Source: Candidatus Humimicrobiaceae bacterium (GTDB taxonomy: Bacteria > Actinomycetota > Humimicrobiia > Humimicrobiales > Humimicrobiaceae). Taken from it: DNA of 63,902 bases. A program made the position numbers and the translations under genes. The notes under the pieces were generated by a model. That model saw nothing but the letters and a program-made list of their open reading frames with translations. It had not been told where the DNA came from and did not search any database. Shown here piece by piece: positions 5,263-28,693 of this stretch; position 1 is the stretch's first letter, and each line of letters starts with the position of its first letter. The stretch covers positions 1 to 63,902 of the forward strand of contig DATBWH010000075.1 in the NCBI GenBank assembly GCA_036514895.1. Direction: 5' to 3'.

Positions 5263-5721
5263 TTAAAACTGTTTCTGCATCATTTCAAATATCTTTTTAG
5301 CATTTTGCTGGTTGTCTGCAACGCATATTATGGTATCATCTCCTGCAACCGTTCCAAGAATCTCTACAAAGTTCATGCCATCTATTATTGCTGCTGTTCC
5401 CTGTGCTTCTCCGGGGAATGTCCGCAGTACGATTATATTTTCCGCTCTTTTAACAGATAAAACACTCTCTTTGAATTTTGTTTTAAATTTAACCGGATCG
5501 ATAACCTTTCCCTCATGTGTCGTACTTTCAATGGAATAATATTCCTCCCCAAGATAATTTCTTATCCTTACAAGTCTCAAATCACTTAAATCCCTTGAAA
5601 TTGTAGATTGTGTCACATCATAACCTTTTTTTTTAAGCTCACTTAACAATTCTTCCTGTGAAGAGATTTTTTGGCTGCTTATTATTTCTTTTATTGCTCT
5701 TAGCCTTTCTGTTCTTTTCAT
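5263..5721 (-). CDS. argR: Arginine repressor ArgR/AhrC
   Basis: 152 aa. It has a winged-helix N-terminus (ISSQEELLSELKKKGYDVTQSTISRDLSDL) and a C-terminal oligomerisation/arginine-binding region (GTVAGDDTIICV). It sits inside the arg cluster. Confidence 0.9.
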   Translation of the reverse strand: MKRTERLRAIKEIISSQKISSQEELLSELKKKGYDVTQSTISRDLSDLRLVRIRNYLGEEYYSIESTTHEGKVIDPVKFKTKFKESVLSVKRAENIIVLRTFPGEAQGTAAIIDGMNFVEILGTVAGDDTIICVADNQQNAKKIFEMMQKQF

Positions 5722-24059: not shown

Positions 24060-24204
24060 ATTTTTCTTCCTTTACACGGTATTTTACAAAAAATATTAAT
24101 AATTTAATTTAAACATCTATTAATAATCCCATACAAAGTCCCTTATTATATATAAAAAACCCGAAAAATCAACCCCGGAATAATTAGAGTGCTGTAAATT
24201 CCTG

Positions 24205-24233
24205 TTGACCGAACATATGTTTGGTAGTAATAT
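24205..24233 (+). promoter_or_regulatory. Promoter of dnaE-dinB with an embedded LexA (Cheo-type) SOS box
   Basis: TTGACC (24205-24210), a 17-nt spacer, then TAATAT (24228-24233). The spacer begins with CGAACATATGTTTG (24210-24223), which matches the Gram-positive LexA consensus CGAACRNRYGTTYC at 13 of 14 positions. Confidence 0.6.
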
Positions 24234-24308
24234 AAAAGAGCTGATGCAAGCAGCCAATTCTGCATACATATATCTAAATAAAATTCAGGGGGGCAAGGCT
24301 TTAATAAA

Positions 24309-27300
24309 ATGGCTTTTTTTTCACATCTGCACGTACACAGCGAATACAGTCTCATGGAATCGACCATTAAGATAAAGAATCTGGTCAGTGCTGCTGCAAG
24401 AAACAATATGGAGGCAGTTGCCCTCACCGACAGATATGTAATGAGCGGGGCAATCGAATTTTACAAAGAAGCAATGAGCAAAAATATAAAACCCATAATC
24501 GGATGTGAGATATGTGTCGAAAACAACGCGATGCTGTCAAGTCTCGTCATACTGATAAAAAATGCAAGAGGATACGAAAATCTGTGCCAGGCAGTAAGTA
24601 AATCACACATAGAAAGAAAAGGTCCGGTACCGGTGGTCAGGATGTCTGATCTTAAAAAAATGAGCGAGGGACTTATAGGATTGAGCTGCTGCGGAACCGG
24701 CGAAATTTCCTTACTTATAAAAGAGGGAAAAACAAAGGAAGCGCTGCGGTCGGTAGTGGACTATCGGGAATTATTCGGCGGAGACTTCTTTCTGGAGATC
24801 CAGAGATATCCGAAGTCCAGAGTAAGTCTGTGCGTATCAGCGTTTTCCGAGATACTGATTAATTTTACATATAGGAATAACCTCCCCATAGTGGCGACAA
24901 ACAATGTCCATTACTTGAATAAGAAAGATTATGGGACATATAAGTATCTTTCTAAAATAAAGGCCATGGGAACAAAAAATGATAACCGCATAAAGCAAAT
25001 AGATAACGATGAACATTATTTCAAGTCCGCTTACGAGATGGCCGGGATGTTTCATGATATACCCGGGGCAATTTCCAATACCCGGGCCGTAGCAGAGAGA
25101 TGCGATCTTAGACTATCTCTGGGCAATGTAGATTTTCCGCACTTTAATACCCCCGCAAATGAAACGGAAGAAGGATATCTAAAGAAACTGTGCTATGGGA
25201 AAGGCCTGGAATGGAGATATGGAAGTAGTCCCCCTGCAGATGTCCTCAGCAGACTGGACAGAGAACTCGGGATAATAGCAGAAACAGGTTTCTGCGGGTA
25301 TTTTCTTATAGTAGCCGATATAGCAAGATATGCGCATAAAAATAACATCTCAATTTGCGGCAAGGGTTCCTCGGCAGGCAGTATAGTGTCTTACGTACTG
25401 GGCATATCCAATGTCGACCCCGTAAAAAACAACCTTTATTTCGAGAGGTTTCTAAACAGGGAAAGGAAAGAACCCCCGGATATAGATATCGACATTTCCA
25501 GCAAAAGAAGAGCTGAAATAACAAGATACCTGGCAGCTAGATACGGTAAAAACAATATTTCCAGAGTATGTATCTTTTCCACTCTCAAACCAAGAGCTGC
25601 GATAAGAGAGGCAGGAAGGATCATGGGATGGAGCAAAGAAGATATAGATCCTGTAATAAAAACAGATCACGGCCTCTTCTCGTATCCAAACAGGCATAAT
25701 ATTGATACCGGAAAACTTAACGGAGATCCCTGGCATACGGATACAAAAAACATGCAGTACAAAAAAATAGCCTGCATTTCCGGAAAGATTGAAAGTTACT
25801 CGAGACACATTTCCATGCATCCTTCCGCATTTATCGTGTCCGGTTCCAGCCTGGCAAAAAAGATCCCCCTTACTCTATCCGAGACCGGAGAAATAATCAG
25901 CCAGTATGATAAGAGCAGCATAGAAGATCTTGGGCTGCTTAAAATAGACCTCATAAATTCCCTCAGTCTCAGCTTAATAGACGATACGGCAGAGATGCTG
26001 AAAAGCAAAAGAAATATAGACCCCAATATCGCGAAGATACATTATGATGACAAAAAAACATTTGATTTGATAAAAAAAGGAAAGACCCTGGGTGTCTTCC
26101 AGCTGGAAAGTTTTGGCATAAGGAAACTTGCAAAAAAAATAAAACCCTCTAATTTAAACGATATCACACTGCTTATTTCTCTTTACAGACCCGGTCCCCA
26201 GCAGTCAGGAATGGTTAAAAATTTCATTGAGAGAAAATTCGGAAGAGAGAAAACTACCTATATTCACAGCGATTTGAAGACGATCCTGGAAGAAACATAT
26301 GGGATAATACTATATCAGGAGCAGGTCATGAGAATAGCAGCCTTAATAGCAGGCTATTCGCTGGGCGAAGCAGACAATCTAAGAAAAGCTATGACCGGCC
26401 TTTCAAAGGAAGAGATGAAAAAACAGACAGCAAGGTTTATGGAGGGAGCAGCGCGTAAAGGTTACAGTGCGTATAAAGCGGAGGAAATTTTCAAGCTGAT
26501 TTCCAAATTTGCCAGTTATGGTTTCGTAAAGGCCCATGCCGCCGCTTACGCAGAATTGTCCTACAGAACCTGCTATATAAAAGCGCACTGGCCGGCAGAA
26601 CTCCTGTCGATAATACTGACCGATAATTCGGGATATTACAGCAGAAGTCAATATATCGAAGAGGCAAGAAGGTTTGATATAAAAATAAAACTTCCTCACA
26701 TCAATAGGAACGGGTTCGAATTTTCCGTCGAGGATGATGGAAAATCCATAAGGATTCCCCTGCTTACCGTAAAGGGACTGGGGCACGTAAGCGTGAGTTC
26801 CATAATAAATGAAAGGACCAAAAACGGAGATTTCAAAGATTTTACCGACTTTTATAACAGAATTTCAGAGAACTGCAGATTACCGGAAAAGGTAATTGAA
26901 AACCTTATAAAAGTGGGGTCGTTTGATTTTACCGGCCTGCAAAGGAAATATCTGCTGCTTGTCTGTCATGATCTAAAGAACCTAGAAAATAACAGGACCA
27001 TCCCCCGCCGCAGCGAATGTCTCCTGTCCCGGGATAAAGATCATTCCGGAGATTTCGATCTTGAAGAAAGGCTGGAACTGGAAGAAAAAATTCTGGGGTT
27101 TTATGCAAGCTGTTCTCCTCTGATGTATTTTAAAAGCGAACTGGAACAGTATCATACCGTAGAGAGTAGGGATTTTCCCATCTTCATATCCAGTAAAAAA
27201 AATATATTTACTGCAGGAATTGTCATTTCCAGGAAAATCAATAAAAGCAGGGACGGCAGAAATATGCTGATGTGCACCATGGAAGACAGAGATGGAATGT

Positions 27301-27527
27301 ACGAAACAGTATTTTTCCCCGATGCCTTCAAAGACAGCTCAAAAATAATAATGAATCATTCCGCTCTGGTAATCGAAGGAAGACTCTGTTTCAAGGACGG
27401 AGAAATATCGGTAATCGGTAAAAATGCTGAGAGTCTTACGGATTTGAAAAAAACTAAAAGCGGAATAAGAAGAGACATCATTAAGAATATCTTACTTAAG
27501 GAAGCAAAACCTGTATGGAAAATCTAA
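24309..27527 (+). CDS. dnaE: DNA polymerase III alpha subunit, short DnaE form (1072 aa; DnaE2/DnaE3-like length)
   Basis: It has the PHP domain start FSHLHVHSEYSLMES, the palm region GKGSSAGSIVSYVLGISNVDP and catalytic PPDIDIDI, the fingers region LYRPGPQQSGM, and a C-terminal OB fold (IFTAGIVISRK...ALVIEGRL). Confidence 0.9.
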   Translation: MAFFSHLHVHSEYSLMESTIKIKNLVSAAARNNMEAVALTDRYVMSGAIEFYKEAMSKNIKPIIGCEICVENNAMLSSLVILIKNARGYENLCQAVSKSHIERKGPVPVVRMSDLKKMSEGLIGLSCCGTGEISLLIKEGKTKEALRSVVDYRELFGGDFFLEIQRYPKSRVSLCVSAFSEILINFTYRNNLPIVATNNVHYLNKKDYGTYKYLSKIKAMGTKNDNRIKQIDNDEHYFKSAYEMAGMFHDIPGAISNTRAVAERCDLRLSLGNVDFPHFNTPANETEEGYLKKLCYGKGLEWRYGSSPPADVLSRLDRELGIIAETGFCGYFLIVADIARYAHKNNISICGKGSSAGSIVSYVLGISNVDPVKNNLYFERFLNRERKEPPDIDIDISSKRRAEITRYLAARYGKNNISRVCIFSTLKPRAAIREAGRIMGWSKEDIDPVIKTDHGLFSYPNRHNIDTGKLNGDPWHTDTKNMQYKKIACISGKIESYSRHISMHPSAFIVSGSSLAKKIPLTLSETGEIISQYDKSSIEDLGLLKIDLINSLSLSLIDDTAEMLKSKRNIDPNIAKIHYDDKKTFDLIKKGKTLGVFQLESFGIRKLAKKIKPSNLNDITLLISLYRPGPQQSGMVKNFIERKFGREKTTYIHSDLKTILEETYGIILYQEQVMRIAALIAGYSLGEADNLRKAMTGLSKEEMKKQTARFMEGAARKGYSAYKAEEIFKLISKFASYGFVKAHAAAYAELSYRTCYIKAHWPAELLSIILTDNSGYYSRSQYIEEARRFDIKIKLPHINRNGFEFSVEDDGKSIRIPLLTVKGLGHVSVSSIINERTKNGDFKDFTDFYNRISENCRLPEKVIENLIKVGSFDFTGLQRKYLLLVCHDLKNLENNRTIPRRSECLLSRDKDHSGDFDLEERLELEEKILGFYASCSPLMYFKSELEQYHTVESRDFPIFISSKKNIFTAGIVISRKINKSRDGRNMLMCTMEDRDGMYETVFFPDAFKDSSKIIMNHSALVIEGRLCFKDGEISVIGKNAESLTDLKKTKSGIRRDIIKNILLKEAKPVWKI

Positions 27528-28693
27528 GGAGAATAATACATATAGATATGGATGCTTTCTTTGCCCAGGTAGAGCAAAGGGATACCCCTGAATATAAGAA
27601 TAAACCCCTGATAGTAGGCGGTCCGCTAAACAGAGGAGTGATCTCATCCGCTTCTTACGAAGCAAGAAAATATGGTTTACATTCAGGGATGCCTCTGATC
27701 CGCGCAAAGAGATTGTGCCCCGACGGAATTTTTGTTCCGGTCAACATGGAAAAGTATCTCAGGGAATCTATGCTGATAAGAAAGATATTCTTTCAATTTA
27801 CTCCCCTGGTAGAATCCATAGGCTGCGACGAAGCCTTTCTGGATATAACCGGATGCCAGAAACTTTTTGGCAATGAACTGGAAATCGCCAAAAAAATAAA
27901 GGGCAGGATCTATGAACAGACCAATTTGACTTCCTCTGCCGGTATAGGCCCCAATAAGTTTTTGGCCAAGCTTGCTTCAAGTATAGGAAAACCAAACGGT
28001 CTTACTGTTCTTGAGAATACCAGAGAAGTCATTGAAAAAGTCAAGCTCCTGCCGGTATCTTATATGTGGGGCGTTGGGAGAGTCACAGACGAGGAGTTAA
28101 AATCAATGGGAATCAGGACCATTGGCGATCTTGCCAATGCCCCGCTGTCAATAATCGAAAATAAATTCGGGGAACCCGGAAGGATTGTCCATGAGATGGC
28201 AAGCGGGATCGATAACAGAAAAGTAGTGACAAACCAGGAACCAAAATCGATAGGAAGAGAGGTGACTTATAGAAAAGATGTAGATGATCTTGAGATATTG
28301 AGATCGACCCTGCTTTTTCTCTCTCAAAAAATATCCAGAAATCTTCGCTTACAAAAATATAAAGGTAAAGTAGTCGCTCTCAAGGTAAGATTTTCCGATT
28401 TTAAGACAGTCACCAGGAGAGTAACTTTAAAAAAATATACCTCCGGCATGTTCGACATACAAAAATCCTCCGTTCTCCTGCTTAAAAATTTTGATTTGAA
28501 CAGAAAAAAAATCAGACTGATCGGAGTTTCAGTAAGCAATTTGAAACCAGCCTTTATGCTGGAAAATTTATTTCCTAACGACAAATCGGCGGATGAAAAT
28601 CTGAGCGAAGCTATTGACAGAATATCTGATAGATTTGGTGGGAATAAGCTTACTATAGCAAGGTTGGCCGATAAAGATGAAATAATGGATTAA
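27515..28693 (+). CDS. dinB: DNA polymerase IV (Y-family), catalytic residues intact
   Basis: 392 aa. It has IIHIDMDAFFAQVEQRD, GCDEAFLDIT and SAGIGPNKFLAKLAS. It overlaps the dnaE 3' end by 13 nt. Confidence 0.92.
   Translation: MENLRRIIHIDMDAFFAQVEQRDTPEYKNKPLIVGGPLNRGVISSASYEARKYGLHSGMPLIRAKRLCPDGIFVPVNMEKYLRESMLIRKIFFQFTPLVESIGCDEAFLDITGCQKLFGNELEIAKKIKGRIYEQTNLTSSAGIGPNKFLAKLASSIGKPNGLTVLENTREVIEKVKLLPVSYMWGVGRVTDEELKSMGIRTIGDLANAPLSIIENKFGEPGRIVHEMASGIDNRKVVTNQEPKSIGREVTYRKDVDDLEILRSTLLFLSQKISRNLRLQKYKGKVVALKVRFSDFKTVTRRVTLKKYTSGMFDIQKSSVLLLKNFDLNRKKIRLIGVSVSNLKPAFMLENLFPNDKSADENLSEAIDRISDRFGGNKLTIARLADKDEIMD

Follow-up and report, generated by a model that had tools for sequence, protein, structure and literature searches.

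The DNA analysed here (the window) measures 63,902 nt and makes up contig C75 in an assembly of 1.30 Mb (G000; 37% GC, rated 98% complete) from a Candidatus Humimicrobiaceae bacterium. It carries on its plus strand two overlapping genes, encoding a second C-family DNA polymerase (hereafter DnaE') and the Y-family polymerase DinB, behind a promoter whose spacer holds a predicted LexA operator. The features of this locus, in window positions, are the following:

24205-24210, plus strand: -35 hexamer TTGACC of the dnaE'-dinB operon promoter, read from the sequence
24210-24223, no strand: predicted LexA (LexA1) operator CGAACATATGTTTG, which fills the -35/-10 spacer, its first C also belonging to the -35
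24228-24233, plus strand: -10 hexamer TAATAT, after a 17-nt spacer
24234-24308, plus strand: 5' untranslated leader, with a purine-rich Shine-Dalgarno at about 24287-24298 and a small hairpin at 24239-24255
24309-27527, plus strand: dnaE' open reading frame (ORF) of 1072 aa, from the ORF list and Pfam
27515-28693, plus strand: dinB ORF of 392 aa, from the ORF list, its start overlapping the end of dnaE' by 13 nt
28556-28573, plus strand: candidate beta-clamp-binding motif MLENLF (DinB aa 348-353), placed by alignment, with a presumed function
28595-28666, plus strand: RecA-NT-like motif ENLSEAIDRISDRFGGNKLTIARL (DinB aa 361-384), recognised by sequence likeness
24145-24172, minus strand: divergent promoter TTGATT-16-TATAAT (10/12) of the neighbouring 3D-domain gene, which lies outside the operon and is given as context

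The operon promoter reads ctgTTGACCGAACATATGTTTGGTAGTAATATaaaag in the window. An earlier note on this DNA had called it near-consensus. The hexamers and the 17-nt spacing are as described, but the term is generous for a promoter that scores 9/12, with 24 such matches in this region versus 17 expected. Hence, the promoter is taken as real because it is conserved in relatives and not because of its score. The other points of that note on the layout were borne out. The 14-mer in the spacer agrees with the quoted Cheo box consensus at 13/14 positions and is the sole such site in the window, with none near uvrB or uvrA. ORF coordinates give the 13-nt overlap of the two genes, and the ATG of dinB has a Shine-Dalgarno, AAGGA, 12 nt upstream. 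Furthermore, the plus strand is almost empty, a greedy gene model placing 47 genes on the minus strand versus four ORFs and one tRNA on the plus strand. Given that 47 of the 51 genes modelled by this longest-ORF heuristic have the opposite orientation, transcription of the operon probably runs head-on to replication. Plus-strand GC skew is about -0.17 for the window, compared with +0.08 within the cassette (24309-28693). A search of the intergenic region against Rfam at gathering thresholds found no riboswitch or other known RNA. The conserved sequence AAAATCAACCC, considered as an RNA element, was rejected as such: it is the -35 region of the divergent promoter of the 3D-domain gene, which is kept in relatives.

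The regulator that would bind this operator is encoded by the genome, a point on which the earlier note had made its reading depend. A single lexA gene is found at C23:10492-11121. Its product matches both the helix-turn-helix (PF01726) and the S24 peptidase (PF00717) domains and carries the Ala-Gly of ITAGKP and the motifs GDSM and VKRF. Its recognition-helix region is SSSATVHSHLKKLEEKG, which we take to resemble that of Bacillus-type LexA. Its promoter contains CGAACCTATGTTTG, a box of the same type as that of the operon, and this autoregulatory box is found in six genomes in total (G000 and five further genomes of the family). Furthermore, the operator CGAACATATGTTTG matches the perfect palindrome of this genome, CGAACATATGTTCG, at 13/14 positions. 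Sites with at most one mismatch to CGAACATATGTTCG number four in the genome, versus about 0.2 expected from Markov-simulated genomes. In a scan with a position weight matrix, five sites reached 21.6 bits or more and all were intergenic; the sixth scored 14.9 bits and lay inside a gene. The sites used to build this matrix belong to the very family that it ranks, and the mismatch count is independent of it. Taken together, these data indicate that positions 24210-24223 are, as far as sequence can tell, a genuine LexA operator. Since the genome has LexA1 only, the cassette belongs to the global regulon.

The five strong sites lie before lexA, before a gene for a 101-aa membrane protein (twice), before the dnaE'-dinB operon and at a tRNA-Asp promoter, so the predicted LexA regulon comprises four loci. 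The 101-aa protein is a single-pass membrane protein encoded one gene from lexA on the opposite strand (C23:8796-9101, minus strand). Its promoter, TTGACA-CGAACATATGTTTGG, has a layout like that of the operon promoter, and the two boxes stand in tandem at C23:9159-9201 (L001:159-201). A Pfam search of this protein gave no significant family; our guess is that it is a candidate inhibitor of cell division under SOS control, with a YneA/ChiZ-type role. The sole perfect palindrome CGAACATATGTTCG of the genome is located at C55:5465-5478. Just 8 nt separate it from the downstream -35 of a promoter, TTGACA-17-TAATAT, which appears to drive tRNA-Asp(GUC), c[5322-5396], an odd place for a LexA box. 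In the same region (C55:5260-5390), the 17-mer CCACTTGATTGTCACTC corresponds to the anticodon arm of tRNA-Asp, and a second copy stands about 100 nt downstream of this tRNA.

DinB is the only Y-family polymerase of the genome. It carries the IMS and IMS_C domains and scores 373.7 bits on the equivalog NF002677 (cut-off 256). The motifs DMDAFFAQ and CDEAFLD agree with the earlier description of a catalytically intact, though predicted, Pol IV, and the catalytic residues are intact in all 23 cassette DinBs compared (23/23). The candidate clamp motif MLENLF follows the little finger and aligns with QTSLF, LSLFE and MNLFED in the Y-family polymerases (PolYs) of DnaE2B cassettes. The tail ENLSEAIDRISDRFGGNKLTIARL resembles the N-terminus of the RecA encoded by the same genome, TVSQIERQFGGGAIMKLGD, and the PolY tails in supplement 5 of PMC12926913; the RecA-NT motif itself was defined in PMC6511836. 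DinB shares 54% identity with the stand-alone DinB found in the sister family, 41% with the PolYs of actinobacterial DnaE2B cassettes and 33% with the Bacteroidetes PolY2. DUF6504/ImuB-C was found neither in this genome nor in nine members of the family, and is present in 53 of the 151 genomes sampled across the phylum. For ImuA, PF00154 finds the single recA gene alone and the operon has no third gene, no dedicated ImuA model having been searched.

The first gene of the operon encodes a protein with PHP, Pol3-alpha, finger, HhH and OB domains. The earlier note had credited it with an intact PHP domain and a DIDID catalytic motif. The PHP fold and the polymerase aspartates (PDIDID and KIDLI motifs) are indeed present, but the PHP metal site is degenerate: its nine-residue signature reads HHERESCNH versus HHDHEHCDH in the housekeeping DnaE1. 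This signature deviates in 23/23 DnaE' proteins, and all housekeeping DnaE1 examined except that of E. coli read HHDHEHCDH. The site counts as "inactive" under the criterion of PMC12926913. Moreover, the alignment shows that the internal clamp motif GQFSLF of DnaE1 is missing in DnaE', as it is in DnaE2. DnaE' is also shorter than DnaE1 by about 90 C-terminal residues and has no C-terminal tau-binding domain.

This gene is not the sole alpha subunit of the cell, an outcome that the earlier note had named, together with constitutive expression, as fatal to its reading. A canonical DnaE1 of 1161 aa, 36% identical to DnaE', is encoded on contig C20 and passes the equivalog cut-offs of NF005298 and NF004226. 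Since a genome search with PF07733 matches just these two dnaE genes, the genome has no PolC. DnaE' passes no NCBIfam equivalog cut-off (best model 974 bits, 1002 needed) and falls below the DnaE2 model NF004225 (633.5 bits versus a curated 939). By its motifs and the presence of DnaE1, DnaE' is a predicted accessory, proofreading-deficient C-family polymerase. A Firmicute organism with PolC and DnaE3, which the Cheo box might suggest, was rejected: the relatives are Actinomycetota metagenome-assembled genomes (MAGs) and there is no PolC. The host belongs to a deep-branching lineage of Actinomycetota. Close relatives of DnaE' come from uncultured Actinomycetota, Candidatus Hydromicrobium or Humimicrobiaceae.

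These relatives indicate which parts of the locus have been kept. The earlier note had proposed looking for the box in orthologous promoters; box and promoter are both kept in 21 orthologous loci (56-93% identity of DnaE'), and the leader diverges. The -35 TTGACC is invariant in 20 LexA1-box loci, L046 having TTGCAA at the equivalent position. The boxes of the orthologs keep one perfect half-site (CGAACAAATGTTCG, CAAACATATGTTCG, CGAACATTTGTTCG), and the -10 is conserved as GTAGTAATAT. Two f3 loci also retain a box. In 30/30 intact cassettes dinB comes second and either overlaps dnaE' or is separated from it by no more than 29 nt, and most have the divergent 3D-domain gene upstream. One arrangement departs from this pattern: in Candidatus Hydromicrobium americanum a 466-aa ORF (L028:2545-3945) stands between the 3D-domain gene and dnaE', and no box is found in the 140 nt before dnaE'.

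In relatives, dnaE' has also often been lost or broken. Housekeeping DnaE1 is present in 61/61 genomes of the class and DnaE' in about 40/61. In the same genus, dnaE' is cleanly deleted in G014, which leaves the box directly before dinB, and has shrunk to a 54-codon remnant in G033. The gene is frameshifted in L014, and in two genomes of the sister family (G010 and G012) it is split by HNH/IscB-like ORFs. Since DnaE' is missing, deleted or broken in relatives while DnaE1 is universal, we consider DnaE' dispensable, as gene content indicates. The interrupting ORFs encode about 80-440 aa and share the N-terminal pattern '...PLMPC..RKARILLKE..KAKV' (L111:2644-3966, L112:2075-3337, L119:68-1249). 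They interrupt dnaE' at two sites in the two sister-family genomes, and one adjoins the decayed cassette of G033. The presence of such ORFs at different sites of dnaE' and at the G033 cassette suggests that a mobile element may have struck the operon repeatedly. The split dnaE' of G012 is directly followed by a small antitoxin-like gene and a PIN-like gene (L122:183-880), and dinB apparently lies further downstream, a placement drawn solely from an antisense ORF common to L120.

From these data, it is likely that the locus is a LexA-repressed, damage-inducible bicistronic operon that couples an accessory DnaE' with the only Y-family polymerase of the cell. In undamaged cells, a LexA dimer bound to CGAACATATGTTTG would block access of RNA polymerase, an occlusion suggested by the architecture of the promoter. 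Upon damage, RecA filaments formed on damaged DNA would trigger the self-cleavage of LexA, as homology with known LexA proteins predicts. A single mRNA would then be made, and translation of dinB would be coupled to that of dnaE', as the 13-nt overlap and the AAGGA upstream of dinB suggest. More speculatively, DnaE', DinB and RecA may form a mutasome-like translesion unit, given their complementary motifs and the published models of related modules. The clamp-like motif and the RecA-NT tail of DinB might supply the docking that is missing in DnaE', and one polymerase might insert opposite lesions and the other extend.

Several points weigh against this reading. The earlier note had asked for enrichment of the motif before recA, lexA or uvr genes. 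It is found before lexA, but no recognisable LexA box lies upstream of recA (C7:16490-16660), uvrA or uvrB. The predicted SOS regulon is thus very small. The scan that singles out the five sites is in part circular, for the reason given above. Induction by damage is predicted from homology. As a clamp motif, ENLF is weak and has no canonical Q. In addition, co-transcription alone would explain the linkage of the two genes, and a DnaE'-DinB-RecA complex is therefore best called putative.

This last point leads to the best-surviving alternative, in which LexA controls both polymerases and they act independently, DinB as a stand-alone Pol IV and DnaE' as a separate gap-filling or repair enzyme, with no complex between them. 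For instance, in the sister family G003 carries dinB alone behind the same LexA box, G014 and G033 retain dinB after the loss of dnaE', and PolYs with a RecA-NT motif are very common without a DnaE2 partner (PMC12926913). However, overlap or near-abutment of the two genes in every intact cassette argues for a joint function. Moreover, DnaE' has no clamp motif of its own, and in the best-studied parallel DnaE2 needs ImuB for docking (PMC6511836). We therefore regard this alternative as unlikely.

It is still less probable that DnaE' is a second replicative polymerase comparable to DnaE3 of Bacillus, that LexA merely tops up its expression and that its adjacency to dinB is incidental. Bacillus subtilis dnaE (DnaE3) is itself reported as a member of the LexA regulon, with a Cheo-type box. 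The intact polymerase aspartates of DnaE' would suit such a role, as would its score of 974 bits on the DnaE1-type model versus 633 on the DnaE2 model and its compatibility with the DnaE1 clade in an approximately unbiased (AU) test (p=0.54). However, DnaE3 is essential and works with PolC, whereas the genome studied here offers DnaE' no PolC partner and has a separate DnaE1. Throughout the class (61/61 genomes) there is a DnaE1 that has the clamp motif, the C-terminal domain and a PHP site of the active type, whereas DnaE' lacks the clamp motif and this C-terminal domain and is absent, deleted or interrupted in many relatives. Finally, it is very improbable that the palindrome serves another regulator or arose by chance as an inverted repeat in AT-rich promoter DNA: chance matches to a promoter of this quality are common in the region, but the motif equals the Gram-positive/actinobacterial LexA consensus, recurs in the lexA promoters of six genomes, has only five strong sites in this one, all intergenic, and in relatives a lexA paralogue heads the same operon.

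This paralogue deserves attention in its own right. In nine more distant genomes, a lexA-like gene stands directly before dnaE' (lexA2-dnaE'-dinB). The five of these that were checked have two lexA genes each, a LexA1 orthologue with a CGAAC box and a LexA2 with a different recognition helix. Upstream of lexA2 lies the palindrome ACTATACA-WW-TGTATAGT. Its core, CTATACA-NN-TGTATAG, has a single occurrence in each genome, the one before lexA2, and LexA2 thus looks like a private regulator of the lexA2-dnaE'-dinB operon. In the DnaE' tree, the LexA1-box loci devoid of lexA2 form one 13-member clade plus L046, nested among the lexA2 loci, and the cassettes of the sister family also use a LexA1 box. 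Either polarity of the switch requires three changes on this tree. Control of the cassette has, on this phylogenetic evidence, switched between LexA2 and the global LexA within the lineage.

The position of DnaE' among C-family polymerases was explored by quick LG+G4 searches on proteins of skewed composition, and for this reason its deep placement is not decisive. DnaE' is monophyletic with a support of 100 in every tree, and its placement varies with sampling. With PolC as outgroup and DnaE2A-type references only, DnaE' is sister to the DnaE1-type (support 94), and it is so again in an N-terminal tree to which the published DnaE2B fragments were added. Addition of the full-length actinobacterial DnaE2B makes this placement collapse (support 31), and addition of eight full-length Bacteroidetes-type DnaE2B from metagenomes places DnaE' as sister to all DnaE2 (support 88).

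The AU tests reject a grouping of DnaE' with the actinobacterial DnaE2B (p=0.0006) and weakly reject one with the housekeeping DnaE1 of the same class (p=0.043). Besides the DnaE1-type grouping mentioned above, they are compatible with one that joins DnaE' to the full-length Bacteroidetes DnaE2B (p=0.37) or, over the N-terminal 400 aa, to all published DnaE2B (p=0.17). Three identities were thus set aside: ImuC (DnaE2A), rejected by the NCBIfam score and the trees; membership of the actinobacterial DnaE2B, rejected by the AU test; and a recent duplicate of the housekeeping DnaE1, marginally rejected. The trees solidly support DnaE' as a separate clade that is neither ImuC nor actinobacterial DnaE2B.

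Beyond this, we put forward, tentatively and as a possibility somewhat short of an even chance, that DnaE' is an unclassified deep-branching accessory C-family lineage, sister to all DnaE2. It would have kept a presumed ancestral mutasome arrangement, consisting of an active PolY with a RecA-NT tail and a second DnaE without ImuB-C or ImuA, whose control would have been swapped at least three times between a private LexA2 with a TATAC-type operator and the global LexA1. If this is true, this clade of small genomes would constitute a natural series for the origin and rewiring of SOS mutagenesis cassettes.

Damage-induced mutagenesis is driven by cassettes of error-prone polymerases, which in pathogens also drive the emergence of resistance to drugs. 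Most of what has been inferred about the origin of these cassettes comes from computational surveys of cultured species whose genomes are complete. The locus described here adds a cassette with two apparently active polymerases in a 1.3-Mb genome, although DnaE2 is said to favour large genomes. It also adds a DnaE clade that may lie at the base of DnaE2 or close to it, a very small predicted LexA regulon without recA, and a promoter whose control has passed between a dedicated LexA and the global one. Current views are not overturned; rather, a recently described class is extended to a new lineage. Moreover, this compact system could be used to ask whether a live DinB can take the role of ImuB.

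The earlier note had likened the pair to imuB-dnaE2 cassettes in which a live DinB replaces the dead ImuB. This likeness is apt, as variants of this kind, the PolY-DnaE2B-RecA and related modules, have been described computationally (Timinskas & Venclovas 2019, PMC6511836; Timinskas et al. 2026, PMC12926913). A mutasome-like arrangement has been proposed for the PolY-DnaE2B-RecA modules and shown for ImuA'-ImuB-DnaE2. Of the known systems, the PolY-DnaE2B-RecA module is the closest; the actinobacterial imuB-C-dnaE2B-polY cassettes come next and the classical imuA-imuB-dnaE2 third.

The PolY-DnaE2B-RecA module of the Bacteroidetes type (for instance ADV50500/ADV50501 of Cellulophaga algicola) also has two apparently active polymerases in one operon, namely an accessory DnaE that does not proofread and a Y-family enzyme that bears a clamp motif and a RecA-NT tail. 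As with this module, ImuB and ImuB-C are absent from the genome studied here, and a lexA-like gene often heads the operon. It differs in gene order (polY-dnaE2B there, dnaE'-polY here), in its DnaE, since DnaE' forms a clade of its own outside all sampled DnaE2 groups, and in its PolY, the partner here being a canonical DinB equivalog with the 33% identity to Bacteroidetes PolY2 given above. The host differs as well, being here a 1.3-Mb low-GC actinobacterial MAG. In two Bacteroidetes-type metagenome loci, a 210-aa LexA-like gene directly precedes polY-dnaE2B (L127:2164-2796, L131:2127-2762). A conserved gene of 230-270 aa follows dnaE2B in loci of this type; that it is SRAP-like is a guess.

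The actinobacterial imuB-C(DUF6504)-dnaE2B-polY cassettes (Tessaracoccus type, PMC12926913) share with the locus studied here the phylum, the order of dnaE and polY and an active PolY with a RecA-NT tail, to which DinB is closer (41% identity). However, they include a DUF6504/ImuB-C gene, which this genome lacks, and their DnaE2B carries a C-terminal motif, KLWHASGGSAG, that is absent from DnaE'. The classical ImuA'-ImuB-DnaE2 system also combines, under SOS control, a Y-family protein and a second DnaE without clamp binding and proofreading. In Pseudomonas putida (lexA2-imuA-imuB-imuC) a dedicated second LexA heads the operon, as in the relatives with lexA2-dnaE'-dinB. It differs from the locus described here, in which the Y-family partner is catalytically intact and without ImuB-C and DnaE' lies outside the DnaE2A clade. 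The dnaE'-dinB operon represents a variant, specific to its lineage, of the mutasome cassettes known from bacteria.

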